IMG/VR virus record: IMGVR_UViG_3300031649_000001
Span: 32,001-96,000 of that record
Reading direction: 5' to 3' (one strand)
DNA: 64,000 bases
Source: a virus
Position 1 is the first letter of the stretch, and each line of letters begins with the position of its first letter. The notes beneath the pieces are model-generated. The model was not told the origin of the DNA and searched no databases. It saw only the letters and a program-made list of their open reading frames with translations. The position numbers and the translations under genes were made by a program. Shown in pieces: positions 301 to 63,129 of this stretch.

Positions 301-873
301 ACTTACGGCAATGGGTAATCACACGCCGTGCACGTGTGCTAACTTCGTGTCTGCGGTGCACGGGACGGGCACGCTACCTCCCCAAGGACAGCCGACCCCC
401 GCCCCGCGCACCGGCTCCGCCTTCCCTTTCTTCGACGAGCGGGGGACAGGCGGGGCGCGCGGTTCCCCTGCTGTCCCGACGGCCAGAGCGGGTGGGGTAC
501 GGCGTCGGAGTTGGTGTCGATCAGGTGAGACGGGCCGCCCCCTCGCGGGGGTGGCCCCACCGCCCCCCTCCGGATTCAGGCCGGGGAGGGGCGGCGGTCA
601 GCACCCTGGCCCGCGCTGGGCGATCAGCCGAGCGTCCGCAACGCGCACGCCAGGATGGGCGCCCTAGGCGTCAGGACCCGCCCCGCCACGTGCCGGGCGG
701 GTCCGCCCCTTTCCGGGTGCGTTGATCCGCGCAGATGGACACGCGTGAGCGGCCGGAAGCGGAGCGTGATCATCCAATGCCGGTGGCACGTGCACGCTTC
801 ACGCAGGAAACCCACACAGGTGATTGCGACAAACGGGTGCGCTCCGTGTGCAGTCGGTAGCTAATGTGACTGG

Positions 874-1116
874 ATGGACAGCGACTTCTTGCCAACGTTG
901 ACCCCTGTTCAAGCGCGCGAATCCCTGCTCTGCCGGGAGGCTGAGCTGCGCACCCTCGCCAAGGATCTCCATCCCGGCGGCCACTTCGAGGCGCGGTGCC
1001 TCGTCCGGGAAGCGGCGGACAAGCTCCTGGAGGCCGGACGGACTCTGGCCGCTGAACCGGCCGCCCGCCCGGCCGCCCGGCCAGCCTCCCCGCCTGCACT
1101 GCGCATCGCGAACTAG
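874..1116 (+). CDS. Hypothetical protein
   Basis: 80-aa ORF with plausible codon usage; C-terminus encoded by a GC tract. Confidence 0.45.
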   Translation: MDSDFLPTLTPVQARESLLCREAELRTLAKDLHPGGHFEARCLVREAADKLLEAGRTLAAEPAARPAARPASPPALRIAN

Positions 1117-1126
1117 CCTCACGCGC

Positions 1127-1381
1127 ATGACCCAACCCCCCACCCCGGGGGCCGCCGCCAGCCGGGCGGCGGAACCCGACCGCTACCTCTGTCCCGAGCG
1201 GGCATGCAAGAGGTGGCCCGCCGAGCACATGCGTACCGGCCTGCTCGCCCGCCACCGGGCGCCCGGCGGCGATGCGTTCACGCTGTGCCCCGGCTCGCTC
1301 CACCCCGTCAAGGGACTCCAGAGACAGGCCGCCCGCCCCGCCGTCACCAGCCCGTACACCCAGCCCACGCTGTTCGGTTAA
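1127..1381 (+). CDS. Small Zn-finger-like protein (CPxxxC...HR...CPGS) ending in QPTLF
   Basis: CPERAC...LARHR...CPGS motif typical of small actinophage Zn-binding proteins. Confidence 0.6.
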   Translation: MTQPPTPGAAASRAAEPDRYLCPERACKRWPAEHMRTGLLARHRAPGGDAFTLCPGSLHPVKGLQRQAARPAVTSPYTQPTLFG

Positions 1382-1422
1382 GGGCTCAACTCTCCATCCA
1401 GAAGCGCAGGTACGCTCCGCAT

Positions 1423-2088
1423 ATGACCGAGCCAACGACACCCACCGACACCCCGGTCCAGGTCTCCATCAGCGACGAGGTGATGCGTCAGATCCGGCAC
1501 ATGCCGGAGTCCGCTATCGACGGTCTGGCCTCTGCGATCGGCCAGCTCCTCGAAGACCCCACCGGCCCCGGCACGCTGCCCCTGGTCCCGGTCCCCGTGG
1601 ATCACACCCACGGCCGCACCCGGACCTACGTCCCCGCCACCCGCGCCGCCAGCTACCTGCGGGCCGCCGTGGCGGAGATCAGTCCGGAGACCGTGACGCA
1701 CTTCGACGCCGAGCTCCAGCAGATGACCCGCTTCACCGAGGAGCACGGCCGCGACGGGCAGATCCGGGGCCTGCGCATGTTCACCACCCGCTGGGTGGAG
1801 TACATCGCCATCCAGGGCAACCACGCCCTGGCCCGCCACATCAACTCCTCCACCAGCGGCGAGGAGCTGGCGGAGCGCTTCGGCCTGGCGATGGCCGAGG
1901 CGCACGCCGTGCACTTCCCCGACGCCGGGCGTGAGCCGGGCACCGAGCTGGGCGTGCAGACGCACGAGCGGCCGGGCCGGGGGTACATGGCGGTCTGCCC
2001 CGTGACCATGCTCAGGGCCGAGGGCCGCACCGAGGAGGAAGCCCAGGCGCGCCTGCGCGGGCAGCTCCTGGAGTGGATCACCGGCTAG
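1423..2088 (+). CDS. Hypothetical protein with C-terminal HicB-like segment (possible RelE-like N-terminus and DUF6247-like middle)
   Basis: C-term GYMAVCP..LRAEGRTEEEAQARL resembles the HicB N-domain; ATG at 1423 in frame of ORF 1204..2088. Confidence 0.55.
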   Translation: MTEPTTPTDTPVQVSISDEVMRQIRHMPESAIDGLASAIGQLLEDPTGPGTLPLVPVPVDHTHGRTRTYVPATRAASYLRAAVAEISPETVTHFDAELQQMTRFTEEHGRDGQIRGLRMFTTRWVEYIAIQGNHALARHINSSTSGEELAERFGLAMAEAHAVHFPDAGREPGTELGVQTHERPGRGYMAVCPVTMLRAEGRTEEEAQARLRGQLLEWITG

Positions 2089-2309
2089 CAACCTGTCCGG
2101 GCCGCCGCGTCTCCTCGCGCCTTCTTGCCAGCCTGACCGGCCCGCCCGCTCCGCCCCGTCCCCGTGGCTGCCCCCGACCCCACCGGCCGCCAGCCCCGCC
2201 GGACGGCGCTCCACCGCTACGGTGCTGTGATGGAGACCAAGCCACTCATGACCTCCCATACAGAACGATCCACGCAGATCAGCCCGTGTCGGCCGGGGAG
2301 GTGTCTCCG

Positions 2310-2948
2310 GTGACCCTCATCCACGCGGATCAGGACGACGACATCGACATCGTCCACCGCCAGATGCCCGTGAACGCCGACGGCCAGGCCACCGGCGCCA
2401 CCATCGTCACCCACGCCTCCGGCCTCCACGAACTCTGGGCGTACTACGCTTCCTGCTGCTGCTGCACCACCCGCGAGCCCTTCTTCAGCCCCGCCGACCG
2501 GGACGCCTGGGCCGAGGTGCACCGCGCCGACCATCCCACCCACGCCATGCAGCTGACGACCGAGCCCTGGGACTTCCGCACGCCGCCCTGGGTCGCCGCC
2601 GACGGACTGCCCCTGACCCCGCCCCGGAGCCTGATCACCATGACCTCAGCCCCCCCGCCGGACCCCTTCAAGGACTTCCCGCCCGGCTTCCCCCGCCCCG
2701 ACTGGGACGACGACACCCTGCTGAGGGTGATGGAGCGCCGCACCCAGCTCCGGGACGGCTGCCCCAAGCACTACGGCAACGCCAACACCCAGCTCACCTT
2801 CTACAAGGAGCTGTTCGTCAACGACCCGGACACCGGCACCCACGCGCCGACCATGGCCGTCTACGCGGACGGCTGCATGGTCAACTGGCGGATCGACGTG
2901 AAGGACGAGGAGCCCCGCTACGAGCAGGCCCCCCAGGGCTCCTACTGA
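2310..2948 (+). CDS. Hypothetical protein
   Basis: GTG after GGGGAGG RBS; strong GC3 bias. Confidence 0.6.
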   Translation: MTLIHADQDDDIDIVHRQMPVNADGQATGATIVTHASGLHELWAYYASCCCCTTREPFFSPADRDAWAEVHRADHPTHAMQLTTEPWDFRTPPWVAADGLPLTPPRSLITMTSAPPPDPFKDFPPGFPRPDWDDDTLLRVMERRTQLRDGCPKHYGNANTQLTFYKELFVNDPDTGTHAPTMAVYADGCMVNWRIDVKDEEPRYEQAPQGSY

Positions 2949-4332: not shown

Positions 4333-6450
4333 ATGCCGCTCTGGAGCATCCACCGCCGCCCCAAGCACCTCATCCGCCGCAACCGCGCGGGCAAGGTCAC
4401 CGACTACCAGGTGGTCGGCTCCACCGTCATGGCGTCGGCCGCTCTCGTCAGCAAGGCCCAGGTCCGTACCGTCGTCGGCCGCAAGCAGGACTGGCAGCGC
4501 GACGCCTGGGACCTCTACGACACCGTCACCGAGCTGCGCTTCGGCGTCTCGTGGATCGCCAACGCCTGTAGCCGGGCGCGCCTGTACGTCGGGCAGATCG
4601 ACCCGGACGGCTCCAGCGAACCCGTCCCCCTGGACCTCGCCGAGGACGAGGAGACCGGCGCCGTAGACCTGGACGCCCAGCAGGCGGTCGCCGTCCTGGA
4701 TGAGCTGGGCGGCGGCCAGCTCGGGCAGGCGGAGATGCTGCGGCGCCTGTCCATCCACCTCAACGTCCCCGGCGAGAGCTACCTGATCGGCTTCGACGAC
4801 CCCGAGGACGAGGGCGCCGGGTTCGGGCAGGACGTCACCAACGTCGTGGTCGGCGACGACGGCGACCAGGGCCGCCGGTGGCTGGTGTGCTCGGCGGACG
4901 AGATCCAGTCCACCGGCTCCGGCATCAAGATCGTCAGCCCGGACATGCCCAACGAGTTCATCGAGGTGGACCCCGAGCAGTCCACCATCCTCCGCATCTG
5001 GCGCCCGCACCCCCGCCTCGGCTACAACGCCGACTCCCCCCTCCTCGCCCTGCGCCAGCCGCTCCGCGAACTCGTGGACCTGTCCGCCCACATCACCGCC
5101 AGCGCGGAGTCCCGCCTGGCGGGCGCCGGTGTCCTGTTCGTGCCGGACGAGCTGACGACCCCCAGCCCGGAGCAGTCCGAGGGCGCCAACCCGCTGCACC
5201 CGGATCCCTTCACGGCCTCCCTGATCGAGGCCATGGCCGCGCCGCTGAAGAACCGCGACAGTGCCAGCGCGGTGGTGCCGCTGGTGGTGCGGGGCCCGGC
5301 CGACAAGGGCAAGGAGCTCAAGCACCTCAGCTTCAGCACCAAGCTGGACGAGAACGTCCAGACCCTCCGTGACTCCGCCATCCGCCGCGTCGCTACTGGC
5401 ATGGACATGCCACCGGAGGTTTTGACCGGTCTGGGCGATACGAACCATTGGTCGGCCTGGCAAGTGGAGGAATCGGCCATCAAGCTACATATCGAGCCAT
5501 TGCTCGGCTTGATCTGCGACTCCCTCACCACCAACCTCCTGCGCCCGGCGCTCAAGGCGCTGGGGATCAAGGGCTGGCAGAAGTACGCCATCTGGTACGA
5601 CACCAGCGACCTCACCATGCGCCCCAACCGGGCACCCGAGGCCGACACCGCGTTCGCCAACCAGGTCATCTCCGACGCCGCCTACCTGCGGGAGCTGGGC
5701 TTCTCCGAGGAGGACGCCCCCGACGACGACGAGCGCGCCCGCCGCCTGATGGAACGCGTCTGCCTCACCAACGCCAACCTCGCCCCCTACCTGCTGCCGC
5801 GCCTGGGCATCCCGCTGCCGCCGGAGGCCATCGCCGCCGCCACCCCCCAAGGGACATCGGCGCCGCTCGGCAACCCGACCAACGTGAGCCGGATCGGCGG
5901 CTACCCGGGCACCCCCGGCCCGACCCCGGCCGGTGCGCCCGGCCGCCCGGCCGCCCGCCCGGCCGGGCTCCCGTCGGCCGGGGGACGCAACGGCCCGCCC
6001 CAGGCAGGCGCCTCCCGCCAGGGAGCCGTGACCCGCGACAGCCTGGAACGCGCCATGACCGCCAGCGCCCGGCCGCGCCTGGCCCTGGACAAGGCAGGCG
6101 ACTGGCGTACCCGCTGCCTGGACATGGCCGTCCGCCGCGCCCTGTCCCGGGCCGGACAGTTCCTCATCCGCGCCACCCCCCGCAACCAGCGCACATCCCT
6201 CCAGCAGCTCCCCCCCGAGGCCGTCCACCTCACCCTCCACGCCGACCCGGGCCAGCTCGACCAGATGCTCCAGAACGCCTACGTCGAGTTCCACGAGTCC
6301 ACCCCCGACGAGGCCTGCCTGCACCAGGCGGTCGACCACTACGTCCGCGCCCTCATCCTCGCCCGCGAGGAACACCAGACCGACTACCTGGACCGGGCCA
6401 TCGCCCAGTTCCAGTGCGACGGAGAGGGGGCCGTCCTTGCCCACGCCTGA
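4333..6450 (+). CDS. Portal protein
   Basis: WQRDAWDLYD..ELRF, GESYL, IWRPHP, SRLAGAG.LF.P.E, PPEVLTG.GD.NHWSAW motifs of cluster B-like actinophage portals; RBS GAGGAGG. Confidence 0.9.
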   Translation: MPLWSIHRRPKHLIRRNRAGKVTDYQVVGSTVMASAALVSKAQVRTVVGRKQDWQRDAWDLYDTVTELRFGVSWIANACSRARLYVGQIDPDGSSEPVPLDLAEDEETGAVDLDAQQAVAVLDELGGGQLGQAEMLRRLSIHLNVPGESYLIGFDDPEDEGAGFGQDVTNVVVGDDGDQGRRWLVCSADEIQSTGSGIKIVSPDMPNEFIEVDPEQSTILRIWRPHPRLGYNADSPLLALRQPLRELVDLSAHITASAESRLAGAGVLFVPDELTTPSPEQSEGANPLHPDPFTASLIEAMAAPLKNRDSASAVVPLVVRGPADKGKELKHLSFSTKLDENVQTLRDSAIRRVATGMDMPPEVLTGLGDTNHWSAWQVEESAIKLHIEPLLGLICDSLTTNLLRPALKALGIKGWQKYAIWYDTSDLTMRPNRAPEADTAFANQVISDAAYLRELGFSEEDAPDDDERARRLMERVCLTNANLAPYLLPRLGIPLPPEAIAAATPQGTSAPLGNPTNVSRIGGYPGTPGPTPAGAPGRPAARPAGLPSAGGRNGPPQAGASRQGAVTRDSLERAMTASARPRLALDKAGDWRTRCLDMAVRRALSRAGQFLIRATPRNQRTSLQQLPPEAVHLTLHADPGQLDQMLQNAYVEFHESTPDEACLHQAVDHYVRALILAREEHQTDYLDRAIAQFQCDGEGAVLAHA

Positions 6451-9400
6451 CCCGTGGCTCTCGGAACGCATGCGGGAGTACACGCACATCCGCCGGGCCG
6501 AAGCCACCCTGTACCCGGCCATCCGCGACGCCGTGGAGGCGTTCCTCACCGAGGCCCGCCAGGGTCCGCTGGCTGCGCTGACGGCCGCCGCCGGAGACGA
6601 CGACACCAACCCGGCAGGCATCCCCTCCGAGGCCACCTGGCGGCGCATCCTGGACCGCTTCGTCCTGGGGCCCACCCGCTCCCTGTGGCGCGGCTCCTTC
6701 GGCCGCGTCACCAACCGCGCAGATGACACGCCCGACGACGACGACGGCCACGGCGCCGGACTCGGCGACCGCCTCGCCGGGTTCCGGCGCGTCTTCGCCG
6801 ACCGGCTGCTCCGCGCCCTCCTGCACCGGCCGCGCGGCGAAACCCCCCAGCAGCTCCAGGCCCGCCTGGCCGCCCTGATGACGCTGGAGGAGTGGGACGG
6901 CCAGGTCATGACCATGACCCGCACCGAGACCATGACCGCCCTCAACGCCGGAGCGGCACACGGCGCGCTCGCCGAACAGGAGCGCACCGGCCAGCCGTGG
7001 GAGAAGCGCTGGCAGTCCACCCCCGACCAGCGCGTACGCGAGACCCACCGCCACGCCGACGGCCAGATCCGCCCGCTGGCGGACCCGTTCGAGATCGGCG
7101 GCCACCGCCTCCAGTTCCCCGGCGACCCGCTCGGCCCCGCAGGCGAGGTCATCAACTGCCGCTGTAGCGCCCGCTACGGGCCCGCCGGAGAACCCGCCCT
7201 CACCGCCGCCTCAGCACCACTGGAGGAGCCCATGACCACGCCCACCGTCACCGAGACAGGACCCGTGACCGTGGAGCCCAGCGGCCGGTGGCGCGGCGTG
7301 CTCGGCTTCATGGACGAGTGGTCCGCGGACCAGCGAATGCTGGCCACCCCCGAGGAAGGCGTACGCGCCCGCCCGCTCCCGCTGCCGCTCCTGGTCCAGG
7401 GCACCCTGGCCAAGGGCCACGACGGCTCCGAACTCGGCGTCGGCGTCGTCGACCGCATCTGGACCGAGGGCACCGCCGTATGGGGCGAAGGCCGCTTCGA
7501 CATGGAGGACCCCATCGGCCGGGCACTGGCCCGCAAGGTCGGCCTCGGGTTCATCCGCTTCGTGTCGCTGGACGTGGACGACGCCACCGCCCACCAGGTC
7601 CTCCTCAAGGAGGACGGCACGATCGTGCAGGACGGCAACCCCAACGACCCCACCCTCATGATCGGCGACGTGTACGACGGCTGGCGCGTCATGGGCGCCA
7701 CCCTCCTCGCTCACCCCGCGTTCCCCAACGCCGCCATCGCCCTCGCTGACGAGAACGGCCAGGCCCTCACCGCCTCCGCGCTCGGCGCGGAGTTCGAGGA
7801 GATCGTGGGCTACAACCCCGAGTGGGGGTGTGTGAAGCAGGACGAGACCGGCGCCTGGACGGAGGCCGACTGCCAGGACCCGGACGCCGTCCCCGCCAAC
7901 CCCACCGGCGACGGCCCGTTCGACCCCGAGCAGGGCCAGGGCGAGATCCCGGCCGCCCCGGAAGAGGTGGCCGTCGCCACTGACGACTCCCAGGAGCCCA
8001 CTGAGGACGACGCCACCGACCCGGCGGACGATGTCCCCGAGGACATCGCGGCGGACGACGAGCAGGCCGCTGAGGAGCTTGACCCCGACGCCGACGCCCC
8101 GGCCGGAGAAGTCCCCGACGAGGGCGCCCCCCTGGACGAGGTCCCGTGCGTGGTGCCGACCGAAGACGGCACGGGGTGGGTGGCCGCGCCGTGTGACGCC
8201 CCCGGCGCCGTACCCGCCAACGCCACCGGCGACGGCCCCGCCGAACAGGGCGACGGCCTGGAGCTGGCCGTCACCCTCGCCGAAGAAGACGCCGCCAGCC
8301 CGGCAGCCCAGTCGGGCCCCACGCACGCCGGGCTGGCGGTCACCGCGCAGGACACCGGCCGGGTGCTGCTGCTCCAGCGCGCCCTGTCCGACGAGGACCC
8401 CGCCGCCGGGATGTGGGAGTTCCCCGGCGGCGGCATTGAGGAGGGCGAGACCCCCGAGGACGCCGCGTACCGGGAGTTCGCCGAGGAGACCGGCTTCGAT
8501 CTGCGCGGATCGGGCGAGGTGGTCGACTCGTGGACGTCGGAGAACGGCGTCTACCAGTGCTTCGTGATCCTGGTGCCCACCGAGGCCGAGGTCGGCATCA
8601 ACATGGACGCCGAAGACCGCCACGTTCTCAACCCCGACGACCCCGACAGCGACAGCATCGAGGTCGTGGCGTGGTGGACGCCGGAGAACCTGGCCGACAT
8701 GGGCGCCCTGCGCGAGGAGGTCAAGGAGACCCCCTGGGAGAAGATCACCGGCGCCCGTCAGGCCCCCGCCGCCGCCCCGGAAGAGGTGGCCGCCGCCGTG
8801 GTGGAAGCGGCCGAGGCCATCGCCCAGGAGGCCAGTGAGCCCCCGGCCGGGTGCGAGCCGTGCCAGGCCGTCGCCATCACCGCCTCCGCCACGGACACCT
8901 TCGCCCCCGGCTGGATGCCGCCCGCCGAATGGTTCGAGCCCCCCCAGGGGGGCGGCGGCGCCTGGTCCGTCCGCGTGGATGTGGAGACCGGCCAGGTGGC
9001 GGGCTACCTGGCCCCGTGGGGCGGCTGCCACGTCGGCTTCAAGGACCGCTGCGTGCCGCCGCCCCGCTCCGCCTCCGGCTACGGCTACTACAACATCCGC
9101 CCCGTCCGCACCAGCGGCGGCACCGTGTACTGCGGCCTGATCACCATGAACACCGGGCACGCCAAGCCGCACGACACCGCGACCACCGCCATGGCCCACT
9201 ACGACCACACCGGCACCCAGGCCGCCGTGATCCGCGTCGGCGAAGACGCCCACGGCATCTGGGTGGCCGGGGCGGTCCTGCCCTTCGTCAGCCAGGAAGA
9301 CCGCCTCCGCCTCTCCCTGTCCTCCCTCTCCGGCGACTGGCGCGAGGTACGCGGCGGCGCCGAGCTGATCGCCGCGCTCGCCGTCAACTCGCCGGGCTTC

Positions 9401-10072
9401 CCCCTCGCCGTCAAGAAGACCGGCACCGACGGCCAGTTCTACTCGCTGACGGCCGCCGGGTTCTTCCCCGAGGAGAAGGAGCCGGAGCTGACCGTGGCCG
9501 CCACGGACGACAGCGCGTTCGTGGCGTCCGGCAGCGCGCAGTCCTTCGAGCTGCGCACGGCGGAGCCTCTCGACCTGGCCTCCGCCGTCGCCGACGAGCT
9601 GGAAGGCCGCGCCGCCCGCCGCCAGCGCGCCGCCTCCCTGGGCGACCGCATGACCGCCTTCCGCGAGACCGCCAGCCAGCGCCGCGCGGTCGAGCTGGCC
9701 CGCCGCACCGAGCTGGCCAAGGGGAAGATCCGGGGCCTCAAGCCCCAGCCCAAGACCGAAGTCCCCATGCCCCTGGCCGGGTTCGGCGGGCTCCCGGTCC
9801 CCTCCAACCAGGACATCGCCCTCGCGAAGAACTGGGTCGACGAACAGGGCGGCCTCCCGTCCTACATCAAGCGCATCACCGACCACCTCACCGCCAAGGG
9901 CATGGACACCAGCCGGGCCATCGCCACGGCGGTGAACGCCGCGAAGAAGATGTGCGCCTCCGGCGATCTCAACTGGCCCGGCATCCAGTCCGTGAACCCC
10001 GGCAGCAAGGCCGAGGCGTGCGCGGCGGTCCAGAAGTGGGAGGCCATGAAGGCCGCCGCGAGGGCCAGCTGA
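6437..10072 (+). CDS. Head morphogenesis polyprotein: MuF domain + capsid maturation protease-like domain + Nudix hydrolase + C-terminal domains
   Basis: MuF: KRWQSTPDQRVRETH..ADGQ...FPGDP..PAGEVINCRC; Nudix box GGIEEGETPEDAAYREFAEETG; GVVDRIW..G..VWGEG.F protease-like segment; lies between portal and capsid. Confidence 0.85.
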   Translation: MPTPDPWLSERMREYTHIRRAEATLYPAIRDAVEAFLTEARQGPLAALTAAAGDDDTNPAGIPSEATWRRILDRFVLGPTRSLWRGSFGRVTNRADDTPDDDDGHGAGLGDRLAGFRRVFADRLLRALLHRPRGETPQQLQARLAALMTLEEWDGQVMTMTRTETMTALNAGAAHGALAEQERTGQPWEKRWQSTPDQRVRETHRHADGQIRPLADPFEIGGHRLQFPGDPLGPAGEVINCRCSARYGPAGEPALTAASAPLEEPMTTPTVTETGPVTVEPSGRWRGVLGFMDEWSADQRMLATPEEGVRARPLPLPLLVQGTLAKGHDGSELGVGVVDRIWTEGTAVWGEGRFDMEDPIGRALARKVGLGFIRFVSLDVDDATAHQVLLKEDGTIVQDGNPNDPTLMIGDVYDGWRVMGATLLAHPAFPNAAIALADENGQALTASALGAEFEEIVGYNPEWGCVKQDETGAWTEADCQDPDAVPANPTGDGPFDPEQGQGEIPAAPEEVAVATDDSQEPTEDDATDPADDVPEDIAADDEQAAEELDPDADAPAGEVPDEGAPLDEVPCVVPTEDGTGWVAAPCDAPGAVPANATGDGPAEQGDGLELAVTLAEEDAASPAAQSGPTHAGLAVTAQDTGRVLLLQRALSDEDPAAGMWEFPGGGIEEGETPEDAAYREFAEETGFDLRGSGEVVDSWTSENGVYQCFVILVPTEAEVGINMDAEDRHVLNPDDPDSDSIEVVAWWTPENLADMGALREEVKETPWEKITGARQAPAAAPEEVAAAVVEAAEAIAQEASEPPAGCEPCQAVAITASATDTFAPGWMPPAEWFEPPQGGGGAWSVRVDVETGQVAGYLAPWGGCHVGFKDRCVPPPRSASGYGYYNIRPVRTSGGTVYCGLITMNTGHAKPHDTATTAMAHYDHTGTQAAVIRVGEDAHGIWVAGAVLPFVSQEDRLRLSLSSLSGDWREVRGGAELIAALAVNSPGFPLAVKKTGTDGQFYSLTAAGFFPEEKEPELTVAATDDSAFVASGSAQSFELRTAEPLDLASAVADELEGRAARRQRAASLGDRMTAFRETASQRRAVELARRTELAKGKIRGLKPQPKTEVPMPLAGFGGLPVPSNQDIALAKNWVDEQGGLPSYIKRITDHLTAKGMDTSRAIATAVNAAKKMCASGDLNWPGIQSVNPGSKAEACAAVQKWEAMKAAARAS

Positions 10073-10301: not shown

Positions 10302-10799
10302 ATGCCGACCAGCACCGACGATGAGGTCATCCCCGCAGAGCTCAACAAGGGGCACCTCATCCCCGCCACGTACGAGGGCACCCTGCGTACGTTCCTCATG
10401 CTCAACCGCGACCAGGTCCCCGTCGCCTCCGGCGCCATGTTCACCGACGGCCGCATCGTCGTCATGTCGCAGACCGGCCGCACCTGCCACCGGTACGCCA
10501 ACACCGGCGCCCTGATGGAGGACTGGTGGGGCAAGGGGATGCTGCTGTGGTGTCTGGAGCGCGGCGGCCTCGACTACGACGTGGCGCCGCGCCGGTTCAT
10601 CTACGAGCGGACCGAGGACGAGACCGGCACCAGCGGTGAGGGCATCGCCGTGGAGGGCGTGGTCTTCCCCCACGGGGGCGTGGTGCTCATGTGGCTGGGC
10701 GAGGTCCGCTCGATCGTGGAGTGGTCGTCGATCGAAGAGGCCCTGGGCATCAGCGGCCACGAGGGGCGGACCCGGGTGAAGTGGCTCGACCCTGCCTGA
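10302..10799 (+). CDS. Hypothetical phage protein (two similar G..F.DG.V halves)
   Basis: RBS GGGAGAG; VASGAMFTDGRIV and VEGVVFPHGGVV internal repeat. Confidence 0.65.
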   Translation: MPTSTDDEVIPAELNKGHLIPATYEGTLRTFLMLNRDQVPVASGAMFTDGRIVVMSQTGRTCHRYANTGALMEDWWGKGMLLWCLERGGLDYDVAPRRFIYERTEDETGTSGEGIAVEGVVFPHGGVVLMWLGEVRSIVEWSSIEEALGISGHEGRTRVKWLDPA

Positions 10800-10967
10800 T
10801 CCACGCGGATCAGACGGCCCCCCAGCCTCCCAACAGGTTGTGACTCCGATACGACGCCGGGGGGCCACCCGACAGACCCGCACACAGGGCGCCTTCTTGC
10901 CGTCCCGCTCTGTGCCCGGTTGCACACCGAACGTTAGCGGCCCGGCGCGGCCGGTGAAGGAGGAACC

Positions 10968-11171: not shown

Positions 11172-11374
11172 TGAACCTGTTCTGGTTCTGGTTCTGCGGC
11201 GCCGTGGCGATGGCGGCGCTCGGGCCGTCGCCCGCGTGGCTGGCCTCCGGCTTCCAGGAGACCGGCGGCAAGGACCTGCCCCCGGCCAAGCGCTGGACAC
11301 TGTGGGGAGTCATGGTCGTGGGCTGGCCCGCAGCCCTGGTGTGGTTTGCCCGCGACGCCATGTACGGCCGCTAG
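11171..11374 (+). CDS. Small membrane protein
   Basis: ATG overlaps upstream TGA; two hydrophobic segments. Confidence 0.55.
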   Translation: MNLFWFWFCGAVAMAALGPSPAWLASGFQETGGKDLPPAKRWTLWGVMVVGWPAALVWFARDAMYGR

Positions 11375-14544: not shown

Positions 14545-14613
14545 GGCGGGTCTCCTGTGTTCTATCTGCGGGGATGGGGGAGGGGCGGCCGGTCGGCCGC
14601 CCCTGGGAGTGGA

Positions 14614-15114: not shown

Positions 15115-15192
15115 ATCTGGCACCTGATCCACGCGGATAAGAGCCCGCTTGAGCACGAAGCGTGAGCGGTCGGCTACTCTACGTAGAACGCT

Positions 15193-26776: not shown

Positions 26777-26787
26777 TCCACGCTGAT

Positions 26788-51091: not shown

Positions 51092-51678
51092 CGCCGCCCC
51101 CCCTGCGCTGCGCCACGATGCCCCCCGGCTTCCCCCTGCCGGGGGGCATCGCTCTGCCAGTTGGCCCAACCGGCTACGCCGTTCGCCGTCTACGGGGATG
51201 CGCCGGGGCACGGTGGTGGGGAACGATCTGCGGATCGATCCTCCGCCCGGCGGCCCGTATCCGCCGGTCTGCCCGGCCGCCCGGCCGGGCGGCCGGTAAC
51301 GGGGAGCGGGGAGCCTGGGACTGCGGGACGGCGTCCCAGGGCAGCCGCCGACGCGGGCGGGGAGCTGGTGCCGACTGGGGAGAAGCACCGGCGAGCGGGG
51401 TGGCGGGGCACTGGGCTCGGGGAGCCGGTGCCCCGCCTCCACCCGGCAGGGGGCTGGCTTGGCCGTCCGCCTACTGTGACAGGGCGTGGGGCTTGAGTCA
51501 CTGGGGGTTGCCCGAACATACCCCGCACGACTGAACGAACCCCGGGGACTGGGGCGGAATCTGCCCCTCCGTCGGTGGCGTCTGCCATGCTGAGACCGCT
51601 TCGCCTGCACCGGCCCGACGTGCAGTCCGGCGGCCCCAGCTCCCACCGCGCTGGGGCCGTTTGCATGAGGAGGCCGTG

Positions 51679-52137
51679 ATGCCGGAGCCGGACGAGTTCG
51701 AGAGCGGGCCGCGCCGGATCATCCCGGCCCTGCCCATGGAGGACCCCGCGCTGGGGGAGATCCGGTGGGGCCGGTGGGAGCGGGCACTGCCTGCGTTCAT
51801 CTGCCTGGTGGGCGGCGGTCAGGCCGACACCGACTGCGAGACGTGCGCCTGGCCCACCCTGCGCAACGCCAGGGGCATGACGTTCTACACCCCCGAGCCC
51901 ACCTGGGAGCGCGTGGTCCGATCCACGCAGACCAAGGACGGCCGGTCCAAGTGGGTCAAGGTGCAGCGCAAGGCGTACTGGGCGTACACGCACTGGGCGC
52001 AGTACTGCCCGCGCTGCGACGAGATGTTCGCGTGGCGGCGGGTGAGCCCCGAGGACGAGGACGACTGGACGGAGATCTTCCATCACCCGCCGACCACGCA
52101 GCGGGCGGTGCCCCCGGCCGAGGGCACCCTGTTCTGA
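51679..52137 (+). CDS. Hypothetical Zn-ribbon protein (CxxC...CxxC) ending TLF
   Basis: RBS GAGGAGG; CETC and CPRC. Confidence 0.6.
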   Translation: MPEPDEFESGPRRIIPALPMEDPALGEIRWGRWERALPAFICLVGGGQADTDCETCAWPTLRNARGMTFYTPEPTWERVVRSTQTKDGRSKWVKVQRKAYWAYTHWAQYCPRCDEMFAWRRVSPEDEDDWTEIFHHPPTTQRAVPPAEGTLF

Positions 52138-52147
52138 TCCGCGCGGA

Positions 52148-52426
52148 TCACGGCTCCAGGGGCGGGATGTCGCTGAAGTAGTCGGTGCGGTTCAGGTGGG
52201 CGCCGAGGGTGCTCAGCGTCATGTAGGGGGACGCCGTGTCTCCCCAGTCGGCGGGGGTGGCGGCCTCCAGCCGGGCGAGGCGCAGGGTGGCCAGGGTGAG
52301 GAGCTTGATCACTTCGGCGTGGCGGGGGCTGGCCGGGTGGGCGCGCAGCAGGCGGGCCGCTTCGTCCAGGCGCTCCGGCACGCTGAGGTCTGTGCCGTCG
52401 GAGTCGAGGTCACGTGGCTTGGTCAT
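52148..52426 (-). CDS. Hypothetical protein
   Basis: Convergent with upstream gene at the 12-bp palindrome. Confidence 0.5.
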   Translation of the reverse strand: MTKPRDLDSDGTDLSVPERLDEAARLLRAHPASPRHAEVIKLLTLATLRLARLEAATPADWGDTASPYMTLSTLGAHLNRTDYFSDIPPLEP

Positions 52427-52592
52427 GGGCGCCAACGTACGGGTGCGGGTTGTGGGGTGCCAGGAGCGGGTCACTGGTCCACCACGAGCAGGACGGGCAG
52501 TACCGGTTCTCCACGTCCCCGGGATGCCAGGACGTCTTGAGACATTCGGGACATGTGATGTTCGGGCGCGGGTCCACGGCTGGCTGCTCCAT
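52410..52592 (-). CDS. Small Zn-finger protein (TCPxC...S.HP.D....YC..C)
   Basis: ITCPECLKTSWHPGDVENRYCPSC. Confidence 0.6.
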   Translation of the reverse strand: MEQPAVDPRPNITCPECLKTSWHPGDVENRYCPSCSWWTSDPLLAPHNPHPYVGAHDQAT

Positions 52593-54212: not shown

Positions 54213-54228
54213 GTTCCATCCGCGTGGA

Positions 54229-54867
54229 TCAGGTACGGGCGGTGCGGTCCTTCGCGATGGAGAACAGGATGCCCAGCAGCAGCTCCGGGATCTGCCCGCC
54301 CACCATCTTGCCGGGGGTCAGGTCGTCCACGAAGCCGTCCAGGACCATGGTGGGCCGGGGCTGTGAGGCGTGGTACATCCGGCCGTCCAGGTCGACGGCC
54401 CCCCCGGCGCGGATCTCCACCCGGTCCGGGAGATCCTTGTAGGCCGGTGTGCGCTCGCCGCGCTCGGACGCCTCGTACATCGCCCTCACCTTGTGGGCGG
54501 GCGGTGCCCAGCCCTCGGTGACCATATACATGCCGACCAGGGAGTCAGGGATGTGCGCGCGGATGGCGTCGGCGGCGGCCCGCTGGTGGGGGCCGCGCGG
54601 TGCCGTCAGGAACTCCCGGTAGCTGGCGAGGACGTTCTTCGGGTCGCCGTTGCCCGCGTTCCACATGCTGTCGGGGACCGGGATCGGGCGGCAGCGGAAC
54701 CGGCCGTTCTCTGCCCGGTAGATGTGGCCCCACTCCGGCGGCAGGTCCCAGCCGACGCGGCCGTTGAGCGCCCGCTTGATCGCGTTGAGGACCTGCGTGG
54801 GCTCGTCGCCGTTGAGGACCTTCACGACTCGGCGACCCCACTCGGGGTCGGTGATGGGTTCAGACAC
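54229..54867 (-). CDS. Hypothetical protein
   Basis: RBS GAGGAG. Confidence 0.65.
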   Translation of the reverse strand: MSEPITDPEWGRRVVKVLNGDEPTQVLNAIKRALNGRVGWDLPPEWGHIYRAENGRFRCRPIPVPDSMWNAGNGDPKNVLASYREFLTAPRGPHQRAAADAIRAHIPDSLVGMYMVTEGWAPPAHKVRAMYEASERGERTPAYKDLPDRVEIRAGGAVDLDGRMYHASQPRPTMVLDGFVDDLTPGKMVGGQIPELLLGILFSIAKDRTART

Positions 54868-56700: not shown

Positions 56701-57390
56701 CTATTCGACGGCGTCGCGCAGCGTACGGTGCGCGACGATGGGGCTGAGGGTGAGGCGGAGCCAGCCGGTGAGCTGGACGGAGGCCATGCGCTCCAGGTAG
56801 GCGTACGCCCCGTCCAGGGCGTCGGCGTGCTGGGTGGTGTCGGTGGTCAGCGTCTCCACCTCCCGCCGGTACACGTCCTCCGCCTGGCCGATCAGCCGCT
56901 CGGCCTCGGCCTGGGGGTCCTTCACGCCGCGCACGCAGATCAGGAGCTGCCGGGTGGTGTAGGCGGTGCGCACCTGAGTGCGGACGTGGTCCTTGCCCGG
57001 CATCCAGATCGGATCGAGGTGGTCGTCCTCGTCGAACCGGGACTCGGTGATCTTCGCGCCGTGATAGGCGCCCATGGAGACCATGTGGTCCGCGTGATCG
57101 AAGAGGGCGCGGGCGGCCTCCCGCATGTAGTGGCCGTGCCGCTCCTGCCAGCTCATCGGCTCCGGCTCGGTCATGGGCACGTTGGCGGCGCACGCCCGGC
57201 GGACGATCCGTGCGGGCTGGGTGATGCCGCCGGGGCGCTCGGCGTGGAACTTGGCGAGGGCTGCGTGGGCGGAGCCGACGGCCATGATGCGGGAGCGGCC
57301 GGGCCCCTCGCCGTCGGGACAGTCGCAGTCGGTGTAGTGGAGGGCGTAGCCGCCGGTGACGGGCACCAGGCGGACGGGGAATTCGGTCAT
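56701..57390 (-). CDS. Hypothetical protein
   Basis: Preceded by 12-bp motif + AGAGG RBS. Confidence 0.6.
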   Translation of the reverse strand: MTEFPVRLVPVTGGYALHYTDCDCPDGEGPGRSRIMAVGSAHAALAKFHAERPGGITQPARIVRRACAANVPMTEPEPMSWQERHGHYMREAARALFDHADHMVSMGAYHGAKITESRFDEDDHLDPIWMPGKDHVRTQVRTAYTTRQLLICVRGVKDPQAEAERLIGQAEDVYRREVETLTTDTTQHADALDGAYAYLERMASVQLTGWLRLTLSPIVAHRTLRDAVE

Positions 57391-57416
57391 GTGGCTTGGT
57401 CCTCTATCTGCGTGGA

Positions 57417-57782
57417 TCAGTCGTTGTCGGGGCTCGGGCGGCCGACGAGCATGGCTCTGGCCTCCAGTGCGCGGTGGAGCAGGGCGGGCTCGCCGGGGGC
57501 GACGTCGTGGGCCTCCACGGAGTCCTCCAGTTCGGGCAGCTCCAGCCGGAGGCTGTCCGGCTGGCTCTCCATCAGCTCCCGCAGGGCGCGGCCCCGGAGC
57601 GGCATGCGCACCCACACCGCCACGTCGGCCAGGCTGACGGTGACGTACAGCGCAGGCCCGAGGTCCACCTCCACGGAGGCGCCTTCGGCCAGCACGTCGC
57701 GGAGTTCTTCGGTGGTCAGCTCGCTGTAGTCCAGCCCCTCGGTGTCCGCCGCCGGTTCTGTCGGCTCCGGCGCGCCGGTCAC
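57417..57782 (-). CDS. Hypothetical protein
   Basis: Stop fused to 12-bp motif. Confidence 0.55.
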   Translation of the reverse strand: MTGAPEPTEPAADTEGLDYSELTTEELRDVLAEGASVEVDLGPALYVTVSLADVAVWVRMPLRGRALRELMESQPDSLRLELPELEDSVEAHDVAPGEPALLHRALEARAMLVGRPSPDND

Positions 57783-58645: not shown

Positions 58646-58672
58646 GACGGGTCGGTGTCCTATCTGCGTGGA

Positions 58673-58984
58673 TCAGGCGGCGAGGCCGAAGGCCAGGGCC
58701 GTCCGCTTGTAGGCGAGGAGCGTACGAAGCAGGTCGAGCGCCTGGGTGGCCAGGTCGTAGGCGGCGGCGGGCCGCTGGCGGCCGTTGGCCAGGGTGTAGG
58801 TGCGGGCGGCCGGGGCGATGCCCAGACGCTTGGCGGTGCGGGTGATCTGGGAGGCGTACCGGGCGGCGAAGTCGTCGCCGAGGCCGAGCCGGTCCAGGAG
58901 GGTGCGGGCCGTGATCAGCGTGGGCTGGCGGCGGGCGCCCAGGACGGCGGCGCGGTGGTGGCGGCGGGTGCGCGTCCGGTACAT
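58673..58984 (-). CDS. Basic hypothetical protein
   Basis: RBS GAGGGAG; downstream of IR-promoter. Confidence 0.6.
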   Translation of the reverse strand: MYRTRTRRHHRAAVLGARRQPTLITARTLLDRLGLGDDFAARYASQITRTAKRLGIAPAARTYTLANGRQRPAAAYDLATQALDLLRTLLAYKRTALAFGLAA

Positions 58985-59011
58985 CGTGTCTCCCTCGGTC
59001 TCCTGCTTGCC

Positions 59012-59064
59012 GTGTGACACGAGATTAGCATCACGGGATACCGCGCGCAAATCTCGTGTCTCAT
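59012..59064 (-). promoter_or_regulatory. IR-embedded sigma70-like promoter
   Basis: Minus strand GAGACACGAGAT-TTGCGC-N17-TAATCT-CGTGTCACAC. Confidence 0.8.
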
Positions 59065-59153
59065 CACAGGGACGAGTCAGGGCCCCGCCACCCACCGTGT
59101 CTGAAGGGAGCGACGAGGCCCTACGGGCATCATGCCATGCGCTGAACGGGAAT

Positions 59154-60770: not shown

Positions 60771-60820
60771 TGTGTGATCACGCTATCCGACAGGGCGCGC
60801 GTGCACAAACCTTGTGTCAC
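60771..60820 (-). promoter_or_regulatory. IR-promoter family member (degenerate)
   Basis: Minus strand GTGACACAAGGT-TTGTGC...GA-TAGCGT-GATCACAC. Confidence 0.55.
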
Positions 60821-61266
60821 TCACCGTGCATGAAAGCAGGGCGTTCACCCGGCTCGTCCTGTTCCTTGGTGTAGGCGGACGGGGTGACCGTGTACGGCAC
60901 CGTCTCCTCCCGGCCGTCCGGGTGCAGCAGCGTGATCTCCCCCTGGGCCTTCGCGACGCGCAGGAACAGCGAGCGCGGCCCGGCCTCGGGGTGCTGTTCC
61001 TGGCCCCGGCAGATCGCCTGCGGCAGCTCACCCGGGTTGTAGCTGAGGGTGTCGTGGCAGGTGATGAAGCTCTCTTCGCGGGTCACGGACTCCGTCAGGT
61101 ACTTCAGGAGGCCAGGCTGTAGGTGCATCAGGTTGCCGGGGCGGAAGATGCACGTGTCGCACCGGCGGGCCATGAGCCGGACCAGGCCGCCGTCCGTCCA
61201 CACCTTCTGGGTCGGCTCGTCGTCCTCGTCGTCGTCCCAGACCTCGGTCTCGATGTCCTCATCCAC
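60817..61266 (-). CDS. Cys-rich hypothetical protein (C.TC.FRPGN...CH.T...C.G)
   Basis: RCDTCIFRPGNLM, TCHDT, ICRG. Confidence 0.65.
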   Translation of the reverse strand: MDEDIETEVWDDDEDDEPTQKVWTDGGLVRLMARRCDTCIFRPGNLMHLQPGLLKYLTESVTREESFITCHDTLSYNPGELPQAICRGQEQHPEAGPRSLFLRVAKAQGEITLLHPDGREETVPYTVTPSAYTKEQDEPGERPAFMHGE

Positions 61267-61341
61267 GCGGATAGCTCCAGGGGGTGGCCGCCCGGCCAGG
61301 TGGCCGGGCGGGCGGGCGGTCAGGTGAGCAGGCGGGGCAGG

Positions 61342-61608: not shown

Positions 61609-61650
61609 GGGGTCCTCCGGTGGCTTGGCCCCCGGCCCGGCGGCCGGGGG

Positions 61651-61701
61651 GTGTGACATCAAACTATCAACCCCTCGGACCGTGCGCAAATCCCGTGTCA
61701 C
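61651..61701 (-). promoter_or_regulatory. IR-embedded promoter
   Basis: Minus strand GTGACACGGGAT-TTGCGC...GA-TAGTTT-GATGTCAC. Confidence 0.7.
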
Positions 61702-61789
61702 GTACCTACGGTGACATCAGGGTTCACGCCTCTGTCCACGGGGCTGGCCGCCCGGCGGGGTGCCGGGCGGCCAGTGTGATCCGCGTGGA

Positions 61790-62665
61790 TCACTTGTCGG
61801 TGCAGCTCGGGCACCACACGGAGCGGCGGCCACCACGCAGGCCGCGCTCCTGGACCAGCCGCGTGAGCGGGTGGGCGTGCTTGTGGGTGGTGCAGATGAG
61901 GGCGTACTTGCCGTCCTTGCGGCCGACCTGGGCCTTCTGCTTGGGCTTGTCGTACAGCAGCTCCCAGCCCTCCACGGCCGCGTCGCCCTGGGCCTCGCGG
62001 CGGGTGCCGCCGCCGGTGCCGGTGCGGGGGGCCCGTGCGGGCTTGTCGCGCTCCACGGCCTTGGCCGCCTCGGCCGCCTTGGGGGCGTCGGCGCAGCCCT
62101 TGCCGTGCTCGCCGGTCTCGACGATCTTCTCCACGGAGCAGCCGCACGCGGCCTGGCCCCGGTGGGCGTCGGCGGCCGGGGCGGCGTCCTCGTCGCTGTT
62201 CTCGTCCTCCTGGTCGGGGGCGTTCTCCAGGGCGGCCGTGATGGCGGCGGCCTGGGCGACGGTGGCGGTGGCCTCGTCGATCACGGCGTTCAGGAGGGCG
62301 TCAAACTCCTCGCCGCTCTCGCCGTCCTCGTCGTCGGCTGCCCGCTCGGCGACGGCGTTCGCCTCGGCCACGGCCGCGTCCTCGGCGTCGCGCCCGGCCT
62401 GCTCGCTGGCCAGGGTCTCCGTCACGGCGGCGGCCGACAGCGTGGTCTCGTCGTCGGCGGCCGGGGCGGCGGGCTCCGGGGCGGTCGCGACCGGCGCGCC
62501 CTGGGCGGTGTAGGTGAGCTTGCTGGTGGCCTCGGTGCGGACCTCGACATCCACGCGGTCCAGCTTGGCGCGGGCGTCGGCCTCGGTCTTGGCGCTCTTG
62601 AGGTTCGAGATGCGCTTGGGCTCGGGGCTGGAGGGGGTGGCGGCGACGATGTAGGCGGTGGCCAT
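61790..62665 (-). CDS. Acidic/Ala-rich protein with C-terminal 'WELLYDKPK' Zn domain
   Basis: C-terminus paralogous to 26930..28171; RBS GAGGAG. Confidence 0.7.
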   Translation of the reverse strand: MATAYIVAATPSSPEPKRISNLKSAKTEADARAKLDRVDVEVRTEATSKLTYTAQGAPVATAPEPAAPAADDETTLSAAAVTETLASEQAGRDAEDAAVAEANAVAERAADDEDGESGEEFDALLNAVIDEATATVAQAAAITAALENAPDQEDENSDEDAAPAADAHRGQAACGCSVEKIVETGEHGKGCADAPKAAEAAKAVERDKPARAPRTGTGGGTRREAQGDAAVEGWELLYDKPKQKAQVGRKDGKYALICTTHKHAHPLTRLVQERGLRGGRRSVWCPSCTDK

Positions 62666-62714
62666 GACGGGCTCCTCGGCGAGTCGGGTGGTGCGTGGTG
62701 GGGCGGTTCCCCTT

Positions 62715-62768
62715 ACGAGACACGAAGTTAGCATACTCTGATCCGCGTGCGCAAATCTCATGTCACAC
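62715..62768 (-). promoter_or_regulatory. IR-embedded sigma70-like promoter
   Basis: Minus strand GTGTGACATGAGAT-TTGCGC-N18-TAACTT-CGTGTCTCG. Confidence 0.8.
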
Positions 62769-62820
62769 GGGCGGGCGGGCGGCCGGACCCTGGGGGAGCC
62801 CGGCCGCCCATCCACGCTGA

Positions 62821-63129
62821 TCAGTCCTCGGTGGCGGGCAGGTCCTCCAGCTCGGCCGCCGCCTGGGCGCCCTGGGCCGCCTCGGTGAGACGCGTGAGCA
62901 CCAGCGAGGCCGCCGCTTCACGCCCCATGGCGCGGCTCACCGGGTCGTCACCGGTCAGCCCGTAGGCCACCGGGAGAACTTCCTCCTCGTAGGTGGTGTG
63001 GACCAGGTGGACCAGCTCCTCCATGGCGCGGGTCCAGCCCGGGGCGTTCTCCTCGTCGGTGAGCTCGCCGTAGATGGTGCTCACGCCCATCTGGTAGTCG
63101 TCGGACGGGGTGGGTGCGGTGTCGTTCAA
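62821..63129 (-). CDS. Hypothetical acidic protein
   Basis: TTG after GAGGAG RBS. Confidence 0.55.
   Translation of the reverse strand: MNDTAPTPSDDYQMGVSTIYGELTDEENAPGWTRAMEELVHLVHTTYEEEVLPVAYGLTGDDPVSRAMGREAAASLVLTRLTEAAQGAQAAAELEDLPATED

Follow-up and report, generated by a model that had tools for sequence, protein, structure and literature searches.

The element and its relatives

We analyzed a stretch of 64,000 nucleotides (the window), which corresponds to bases 32001-96000 of a virus record of IMG/VR (IMGVR_UViG_3300031649_000001, here G000); the record has 111,261 bp and a G+C content of 71%. The subject of this work is a 12-bp motif, ATCCNCGNRGAT, that is repeated at gene junctions and within genes along the whole element. 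The proteins encoded in the window include a portal, a MuF/Nudix head protein, a major tail protein, a tail fibre, and a tape-measure-like protein, as in an actinobacterial siphovirus. The head protein (6437-10072) has 1211 amino acids and consists of a Mu-F-like domain fused to a Nudix hydrolase domain. Outside the window, the element also carries a probable partition pair. It consists of a ParA ATPase (genome 14869-15588; PHROG E = 1e-30; Pfam CbiA/MipZ), then a 137-aa protein that resembles ribbon-helix-helix (RHH) proteins (genome 15595-16008).

Two relatives were compared over their entire length. G001 is an IMG/VR record, syntenic with G000 and with ~80% nucleotide identity to it. G006, a contig with 106,095 bp, comes from Streptomyces andamanensis strain PCU 347. 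They are the only full-length members of the family found in IMG/VR, GTDB genomes, JGI metagenomes, and PLSDB. Among GenBank phages, megablast gave no match to the element and no close relative. No RNA dataset is recorded as containing the element; the only dataset with all of it is a root metagenome, its probable source. Full-length homologues of one element protein are present on ~103-115 kb contigs of Streptomyces assemblies, such as those of S. longwoodensis and Streptomyces sp. NPDC059278 and other relatives at the 50-65% level, and the distant relatives are complete Streptomyces plasmids, circular or linear, of ~100 kb with phage head genes. Because of these relatives, the ParA/RHH-like pair, and the phage structural genes, the element is best described as a Streptomyces phage-plasmid.

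Abundance and anatomy of the motif

The motif ATCYNCGNRGAT occupies 29 distinct sites in the window and 59 in the whole 111-kb element. A preliminary description of the window had counted about 30 copies; the abundance stands, with 29 as the exact figure. Written as ATCCNCGNRGAT, the motif gives 46 strand matches in the window, which represent the 29 sites (17 readable on both strands and 12 asymmetric). The dinucleotide-shuffled window gives an expectation of 0.31 strand matches (maximum 4). The reversed pattern, a control applied to the whole element, has 0 sites against 59. With one mismatch, 107 strand matches were found versus 2 for the control. Likewise, an unbiased k-mer scan placed the motif among the top over-represented 12-mers in G000, G001, and G006.

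Coding sequences (CDS) fully contain 30 sites, compared with 0.95 ± 0.96 under synonymous-codon shuffling (300 shuffles, maximum 5), and all three reading frames are used (16/9/5). Since these sites exceed a codon-aware null and use every frame, rare codons such as GAT are used to build them, as the preliminary description had suspected when it proposed selection on the DNA itself. Copies deep in genes are ~20-fold above expectation. Neither composition nor codon usage accounts for the enrichment.

The alignment of all copies from the three genomes gives a full site of 18 bp with dyad symmetry, CYG-ATCCNCGNRGAT-NRR (C-Y-G-ATCC-N-CG-N-RGAT-N-R-R). The flanks are symmetric, with pyrimidines at -3/-2 and purines at +2/+3, and are the same for junction and in-gene copies. 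At flank position -2, thymine has a ~3-fold enrichment. The half-sites (ATCYNC|GNRGAT) meet directly in the central CG. The S. andamanensis element uses ATCTGCGCAGAT, so the half-site can be written as ATC(C/T)NC. At junctions, the commonest variant is asymmetric, ATCC(A/G/C)CGCAGAT (G9 to A). Symmetric flank preferences in both junction and in-CDS copies are the pattern predicted by a dimer on duplex DNA.

Positions of the copies

Gene ends and starts were taken from a GC3-based gene map. The copies are spread over all modules, including the portal, head, tail-fibre, and tape-measure genes, and half of them lie in genes. Those of the window are listed here; lines without a strand are copies to which none is assigned.

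725-736, plus: asymmetric copy ATCCGCGCAGAT, non-coding, sense.
2268-2279, plus: asymmetric copy ATCCACGCAGAT, 6 nt 5' of start 2286; motif kept in G001.
2319-2330: palindromic-type copy within CDS 2286-2948; G001 has GAC for GAT.
8499-8510, minus: asymmetric antisense copy deep in CDS 6437-10072; not kept in G001.
10799-10810: palindromic-type copy, whose first A is the final base of the TGA of 10302-10799; 12/12 conserved in G001.
11551-11562: perfect palindrome ATCCGCGCGGAT within minus-strand CDS 11371-12018.
13238-13249, minus: asymmetric sense copy within minus-strand CDS 12015-13463.
14564-14575, minus: asymmetric copy ATCCCCGCAGAT, then in sense AGAACACAGGAG and the start of minus-strand gene 13843-14544.
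15127-15138: palindromic-type non-coding copy, 13 bp past dyad promoter module 15066-15113; kept in G001.
20691-20702, plus: asymmetric copy 5 nt past the stop of 20114-20686 and 5' of the 1112-aa tail-fibre/lyase gene; kept in G001.
23198-23209: perfect palindrome ATCCACGTGGAT deep in CDS 20762-24100.
23386-23397, plus: asymmetric sense copy ATCCCCGGAGAT in CDS 20762-24100.
23666-23677: perfect palindrome ATCCGCGCGGAT in CDS 20762-24100.
26776-26787: one-mismatch copy ATCCACGCTGAT welded to the TGA of 26198-26776.
28207-28218, plus: asymmetric copy, then AGAGAGCGC-ATG; 12/12 conserved in G001.
28707-28718, plus: one-mismatch copy ATCCACGCAGAC welded to the TGA of 28153-28707, then AGAGAGAGGACCAAGCC.
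28985-28996, plus: one-mismatch copy ATCCACGCAGAC welded to the TGA of 28671-28985, then a ribosome-binding site (RBS) and start 29017.
29670-29681, plus: asymmetric copy ATCCCCGCAGAT just past junction 29625/29628.
33253-33264: palindromic-type intergenic copy.
33950-33961: perfect palindrome, 30 nt into GNAT acetyltransferase CDS 33920-34270.
35021-35032: palindromic-type intergenic copy, 246 nt 5' of the recombinase gene.
35244-35255: palindromic-type copy, 23 nt 5' of the recombinase start; G001 has a motif at the same offset (-34).
36595-36606: copy overlapping the end of 36318-36608, then AGAGCAGGT-ATG (36616); 12/12 conserved in G001.
38608-38619: in-CDS copy (38536-39102); 12/12 conserved in G001.
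42824-42835: in-CDS copy in the 1226-aa tape-measure-like gene; 12/12 conserved in G001.
44183-44194, plus: asymmetric sense copy in CDS 43761-44567.
52137-52148: 16-bp palindrome TGATCCGCGCGGATCA common to the TGA stops of convergent 51661-52137 (plus) and 52148-52474 (minus); kept in G001.
54218-54229: copy welded to the TGA of minus-strand gene 54229-54867.
57406-57417, minus: asymmetric copy welded to the TGA of minus-strand gene 57417-57782, then in sense AGAGGACCAAGCC..ATG of 56701-57390.
58662-58673, minus: asymmetric copy welded to the TGA of minus-strand gene 58673-59020, then AGGACACC..ATG; 12/12 conserved in G001.
61261-61272: copy at the start of minus-strand gene 60817-61266; motif kept in G001.
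61779-61790: 16-bp near-palindrome TGATCCGCGTGGATCA welded to the TGA of minus-strand gene 61790-62665; kept in G001.
62810-62821: one-mismatch copy ATCCACGCTGAT welded to the TGA of minus-strand gene 62821-63174.

There are three positional classes. The first consists of intra-operon junction copies, often of the asymmetric form ATCC(A/G/C)CGCAGAT. The second consists of palindromic copies at convergent gene ends, such as 52137-52148, common to two stops. The third consists of seven copies next to promoters, described below.

The eleven welded cases named in the preliminary description were all found as described, on the plus strand (gene ends 10799, 26776, 28707, 28985, and 52137) and on the minus strand (52148, 54229, 57417, 58673, 61790, and 62821). 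Four of them are one-mismatch variants (26776, 28707, 28985, and 62810). Genome-wide, a welded copy is present in 13 of the 101 TGA-terminated genes. True stops represent only 4% of TGA trinucleotides, yet they make up 35% of the cases in which a TGA is joined to the motif. The purine-rich RBS and start codon said to follow directly after 14564, 28207, 28707, 28985, 36595, 57406, and 58662 are also present. Near the tyrosine recombinase gene, the two copies reported (35021 and 35244) exist; however, they lie upstream of the gene (start 35278), not within its 5' coding region.

The motif is placed 0-3 nt 5' of the Shine-Dalgarno sequence and ends 9-20 nt before the start codon. It does not contain a Shine-Dalgarno sequence itself. 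A Shine-Dalgarno sequence can start on the purine pair of the right flank, e.g. AGGAC or AGAGAGG. The welding to stops and RBSs is explained by the flanks, because TGA fits the left one (C-T-G|ATCC) and the Shine-Dalgarno purines fit the right one (GAT-N-R-R). With these overlaps, a stop, a full site, and an RBS are packed in ~25 nt.

Host absence and conservation

In the 8.9-Mb genome of S. andamanensis, 36 sites are on the 106-kb phage-like contig. The remaining 8.8 Mb has ~13, no more than expected by chance. The motif is therefore specific to the element. Five distantly related Streptomyces phage-plasmids have 0-1 sites each.

Between G000 and G001, 29 of the 43 alignable sites are kept as motif at ~80% nucleotide identity, versus 18% of background 12-mers. 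The substitutions occur at the degenerate positions 5, 8, and 9. Sites at gene edges and junctions are kept in 25 of 30 cases (83%) in G001 and in 10 of 14 (71%) in G006, with backgrounds of ~27% and ~15%, respectively. Judging from these alignments, the motif is under purifying selection.

Promoter modules

The element has ~20 promoter modules. Each presents a -35-like TTTGCA or TTAGCA and an extended -10 (TGC-TAATCT or TGC-AATACT) between the inverted arms GAGACAC...GTGTCAC. The stereotyped module reads GAGACACG-N3-TTTGCA-N16-TATGCAAT-N4-GTGTCACAC, and a G+C-rich stem-loop is often found 3' of it.

Window 15066-15113, 25658-25705, 26874-26920, 59012-59100, 62717-62765, and 63708-63755; genome 2.3, 10.4, 30.0, and 97-110 kb: promoter modules.

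Seven copies of the motif, outside the window (genome 10.4 kb and 103-109 kb), stand 4 bp from the left arm of a module and ~15 bp upstream of the -35. This fixed 4-bp spacing is conserved in G001. The rest of the 59 exact sites are not promoter-adjacent. The arms look like a second operator system, distinct from the 12-mer. At genome 106686, a copy lies between two divergent promoters, in DNA that need not be transcribed.

A paralogous family is encoded at genome 106.7-109.8 kb, with further members elsewhere. Its N-termini are variable, and a C-terminal Cys/His-rich module (GWELLYDKP...YALIC...GWCPSC) is conserved. Each paralogue has its own promoter module with a copy of the 12-mer upstream.

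Orientation of the asymmetric copies

Over the three genomes, 31 of 35 asymmetric junction copies are co-oriented with transcription. The minus-strand copies within short minus-strand blocks show the same co-orientation, so the bias follows transcription and not replication. The deep in-CDS copies (n = 22) present no orientation bias: 13 are palindromic, 4 sense, and 5 antisense.

The observed orientation has the weaker predicted mRNA structure at 33 of 34 sites (-6.4 kcal/mol, versus -8.8 when flipped and -9.9 with the palindrome restored). On duplex DNA, the weaker half-site is equivalent in either orientation, but not in mRNA. There, the change G9 to A places a C.A mismatch in the AUCC/GGAU hairpin next to the RBS and disrupts it, whereas the opposite orientation yields a U.G wobble, with which the hairpin is kept. 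The bias is thus compatible with a site that acts at the DNA level. The sense bias of this variant is best explained as selection against an mRNA hairpin beside the RBS.

Candidate binding proteins

Pfam and PHROGs scans of ~100 proteins of the element recognized no binder of the motif. They gave three candidates only: a marginal HTH_3 open reading frame (ORF), a protein with several helix-turn-helix (HTH) units, and the RHH-like analogue of ParB. In the same scans, no protein matched a repressor family such as the immunity repressors of the L5 gp71/R4 type, and many small ORFs had no family.

39121-39990, minus: candidate binder of 289 aa, in reverse orientation within the tail module; it has repeated HTH units of the terminase-small-subunit/invertase type, and its gene has no copy of the motif upstream.

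The HTH_3 candidate is an XRE-like ORF of 92 aa (genome 23607-23885, E = 4e-4), absent from the automatic gene calls. A motif-like element is placed ~55 nt 5' of this gene in the three genomes; it is exact in G006, with one mismatch in G000 and two in G001. Among the candidates, only the XRE-like gene has such an element at a conserved position. From its sequence and upstream region, we consider it a weak front-runner as the binder. The RHH-like candidate (137 aa) has a basic N-terminal peptide and a C-terminus that reads as a ribbon-helix-helix, so that with ParA it would be a type Ib-like pair. All three candidates are present in the motif-bearing genomes and absent from the motif-less relatives, like every other non-structural gene. 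Because the motif-less phage-plasmids have only structural genes in common with the element, phylogenetic profiling does not discriminate among binders.

Just before the window and upstream of the terminase, one operon encodes a ParB_N protein, a Tet_JBP oxygenase (genome 27108-28049, E = 2.6e-18), and an exonuclease. The ParB-like protein (271 aa, genome 23984-24799) has the ParB_N domain only (E = 0.008; Noc N-domain E = 0.005), with SHNH in place of GERR. Its AlphaFold (AF2) model shows the N-domain and low-confidence C-terminal helices, with no HTH. The relatives of its N-domain are mostly fused to methylases. No C5 or N4/N6 DNA methyltransferase was found in the element. Previous work (PMC13229309, 2026) described phage thymine dioxygenases of short sequence preference whose activators are ParB-like proteins devoid of a DNA-binding domain. 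The protein matches this 5mYOX-associated ParB class of thymine dioxygenase activators (PMC13229309). Given this match, the Tet_JBP oxygenase, and the lack of a methyltransferase, the DNA of the element is, by analogy with the published class, probably thymine-modified (5-hydroxymethyluracil). The predicted domain content indicates that the ParB-like protein is not the reader of the dyad.

A proposed dispersed operator network

We infer that the dyad copies form a dispersed operator network for one element-encoded, probably dimeric, DNA-binding protein, and we place about half of our confidence in this reading. The 12-mer would be the core of an 18-bp dyad that acts on DNA as the site of one sequence-specific protein. 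The ~60 strong sites and ~45 one-mismatch sites would compose a genome-wide network. Its conserved core would be the copies at intra-operon gene junctions and those directly 5' of the seven cassette promoters. The in-gene copies would make the network denser and would turn over. In analogy to repressor-stoperator systems, where the bound repressor blocks the elongation of transcription, the protein could, once bound, obstruct or insulate transcription across gene boundaries. For example, lytic and accessory operons could be kept quiet in the plasmid-prophage state. The welding would come from fitting 18-bp sites into intergenic DNA of minimal length.

Actinophages, Streptomyces phages among them, have documented repressor-stoperator networks, and some Cluster A phages are extrachromosomal with parABS (PMC6550527, PMC10276819). 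The stoperators of Cluster A phages L5 and Bxb1 and of R4/phiJoe-type Streptomyces phages resemble the sites described here. They are tens of short, genome-wide sites of temperate actinophages, mostly outside promoters. They are located in short gaps between genes or extend over stops and starts, are mostly oriented with transcription, are lineage-specific, and are absent from the host. Such networks have 20-30 or more dispersed sites; here there are 59 exact ones over 111 kb in all modules, seven of them promoter-adjacent. One orientation predominates in stoperators, as it does here in the asymmetric junction copies, with a ratio of 4:5 in the deep in-CDS copies.

There are also differences. 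Stoperators have 13-14 bp, no dyad symmetry, and are bound by a repressor monomer, whereas the sites here are 18-bp dyads and perfect palindromes are common. Some stoperators are true operators inside Pleft; here, no copy lies over a -35 or -10, and half are in genes. Unlike in those phages, a second and different dyad (GAGACAC...GTGTCAC) brackets the promoters, and no L5/R4-type repressor was recognized among the ~100 proteins scanned. The preliminary description had proposed a stoperator-like network as its first option. This option is favored by the element specificity, the conservation, the dyad with symmetric flanks, and the unbiased deep copies. Nevertheless, two defining features of stoperators are absent, as the sites have dyad symmetry and no copy is in a core promoter. 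The network is most likely a differently built relative of stoperator networks, and not a new kind of system.

Several points weigh against an operator network. No binder was recognized among the proteins scanned. The ~20 promoter modules have no copy that overlaps the -35 or -10; classical operator action at promoters is therefore not apparent. Copies located 60 nt or more from the ends of a gene are weakly kept in place (4 of 12 in G001 and 5 of 11 in G006), often with GAT/GAC differences. This contrast with the junction copies indicates that the latter are fixed in position and that in-gene copies are maintained in number, not place. The predicted recognition helix of the XRE-like protein differs between G000 and G006, yet the motif core is unchanged. 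The probable thymine modification could alter what any protein reads. Finally, the strong sense bias and the tight placement between stop and RBS would also fit a role at the RNA level.

Dispersed operator networks are one of the few known means by which phages silence whole genomes beyond promoters. The networks studied in depth so far are of asymmetric, monomer-bound stoperators only. If the reading proposed here is true, this silencing strategy evolved more than once, with different protein-DNA geometry. The dyads occur in a poorly known group of ~100-kb Streptomyces phage-plasmids, which also bear a thymine-hypermodification operon. With ~60 sites, there is a clean, testable set with which to look for a new regulator, and operator and repressor could serve as an orthogonal pair in Streptomyces genetics.

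Alternative explanations

The motif could be a junction element of the RNA. In that case, AUCCNCGNRGAU between stop and RBS would be read by a ribonuclease, an RNA-binding protein, or the ribosome, and would control processing, coupling, or re-initiation in a SAS-like manner. The sense orientation of the asymmetric junction copies agrees with it, and the sense strand of ~90% of all copies reads ATCCNCGNRGAT, as is always the case for palindromes. So does the position of the motif directly before the Shine-Dalgarno sequence, often welded to a stop. A distant phage-plasmid, pS1D4-14.2 (W01, NZ_CP041606.1), has an asymmetric word, GACCAAGGAA, 35 times; it is always sense, 5' of a second Shine-Dalgarno sequence, and often TGA-welded. 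However, the 22 copies deep in genes show no preference for one orientation, and five are antisense. The flank preferences are dyad-symmetric, and some copies are upstream of or between divergent promoters. The only plausible hairpin is destroyed by the commonest junction variant, and we rejected an RNA hairpin as the function. We also rejected mRNA pairing with the 3' tail of 16S rRNA, verified in the host genome, because 2.1% of random 18-mers reach the same complementarity of 7 nt; the duplex energy is within ~1 standard deviation of random. On balance, an RNA-level element seems unlikely.

The SAS/ESAS of Cluster K mycobacteriophages are also short, gene-oriented junction words, sometimes with the upstream stop, and are absent from host genomes (PMC3203893). 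They differ from the dyad in several respects. SAS is an asymmetric 13-mer that contains AGGAG, the Shine-Dalgarno sequence itself, at 3-7 bp from the start, whereas the dyad is upstream of the Shine-Dalgarno sequence. SAS is found only in the non-structural half of the genome and never in genes, whereas the dyad is genome-wide, with structural genes included and 22 copies deep in CDS.

Another phage-plasmid, pSITFR-21c (W04, NZ_CP134608.1), has the palindrome TGTCCGGACA at 12 clustered sites. With repeated words of their own in both plasmids, lineage-specific signals appear to be common in Streptomyces phage-plasmids. A translation-initiation context, (A)GGACCAAGCC-ATG, is present 6-10 times per genome in G000, G001, and G006 (window 28726-28740 and 57380-57395; genome 4864, 9196, and 98392). 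It has GACCAAG in common with the 35-copy word GACCAAGGAA of pS1D4-14.2.

The dyads could also be dispersed centromere-like or loading sites for segregation or compaction by ParA and an RHH-like protein of the ParG/omega type, which might act as a global regulator as well, like KorB-OB on RK2. The ParA ATPase is indeed followed by the 137-aa protein with its basic N-terminus and RHH-like C-terminus, and the relatives are separate contigs or ~100-kb plasmids in Streptomyces. In addition, no convincing array of centromere repeats was found beside parA. KorB binds dispersed palindromic operators of similar size, promoter-proximal, distal, and intragenic, on a replicon with ParA, and silences promoters up to 1.5 kb away (PMC11790492). 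By contrast, the par locus lies within one of the longest stretches free of exact sites (genome 11.7-19.1 kb). In the three genomes, no copy with up to one mismatch is within 250 bp 5' of parA or the RHH gene. The ~60 sites are far above the number in known centromeres, and the RHH assignment comes from reading the protein sequence. KorB belongs to the ParB-family CTPase clamps and binds DNA through an HTH domain, whereas the sole ParB-fold protein here lacks such a domain and matches the dioxygenase activator. RK2 carries 12 OB sites, and the sites here are several-fold more numerous. For these reasons, a partition role seems just as unlikely as an RNA-level element.

A comparison with parS and Noc sites leads in the same direction. 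In its 16-bp form (TGATCCACGTGGATCA), the motif is similar in layout to parS (TGTTNCACGTGNAACA), and Noc sites are also dispersed on the chromosome. However, the central positions are conserved in parS and degenerate here, the sites are not clustered at the par locus, and no ParB with a DNA-binding domain was found. We rejected the parS/ParB reading, since the ParB-like protein lacks this domain and fits a dioxygenase activator.

Very little probability goes to a mark linked to DNA modification. The thymines of the dyad (ATC/GAT and the CTG flank) would be preferred substrates of the element's ParB-dependent thymine dioxygenase and glycosyltransferase, or would be read differently once modified, as an epigenetic-like punctuation of gene boundaries. 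The operon with the Tet_JBP oxygenase and the ParB_N protein without a DNA-binding domain agrees with this, as do the ~3-fold enrichment of thymine at flank position -2 and the lack of C5 or N4/N6 methyltransferases, the latter as in the published subclass of ParB-dependent thymine dioxygenases (PMC13229309). Nevertheless, the published specificities are the trinucleotides YTY and NTR (PMC13229309), not sites of 12-18 bp. Nothing ties the enzyme to the motif, and a mere modification target needs no conservation at junctions. In a more specific form, which we hold to be slightly more remote still, the dioxygenase and glycosyltransferase would turn thymines in or beside the dyad into a base-J-like form, and the modification state would gate a reader protein or the RNA polymerase at the gene boundary. 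Base J marks the boundaries of transcription units in kinetoplastids. If this form were true, the modification-gated dyad would be its counterpart in a bacterial virus.

The second option of the preliminary description was that the dyads are cassette-boundary sites, at which the resident tyrosine recombinase swaps single accessory genes.

35278-36237, plus: tyrosine recombinase (Phage_integrase), rejected as user of the motif.

Two copies lie 5' of this gene, and ~11 conserved copies are at the very end of a G000/G001 BLAST high-scoring segment pair. The latter are not telling, because homology breaks at gene junctions generally. Breakpoints of homology with G001 occur at 8 of the 24 junctions with a motif and at 35 of the 92 without (Fisher p = 0.81). 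With G006, they occur at 11 of 23 and 36 of 79, respectively (Fisher p = 1.0). Their frequency is no higher at the motif. Moreover, half of the copies are within genes, and the junction copies are mostly between conserved syntenic genes. The core sites of tyrosine recombinases need two inverted arms around a crossover spacer of 6-8 bp; as read from the sequence, the 6-bp half-sites here abut without one. We rejected this reading, to which we assign only a minimal probability.

Sites of a host factor, for example for the titration of DnaA (ATCCAC is akin to the core of the DnaA box, TTATCCACA), have next to no probability and were rejected, because the host chromosome has the motif no more often than chance predicts, the DnaA box has a conserved A where the dyad has a degenerate N, and the site is a dyad.

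Other observations

An exact direct repeat of 126 bp is present near the ends of the record (genome 1-126 and 110894-111019) and holds a copy of the motif. It may represent terminal redundancy; alternatively, the genome may be circular or permuted, with the repeat as an overlap from assembly.

Five short viral contigs of IMG/VR, otherwise unrelated, have the 16-mer GATCCACGCAGATAGG once each, on the minus strand and 53-77 nt from the contig end. Possibly, it is a terminal sequence conserved in another group of phages.

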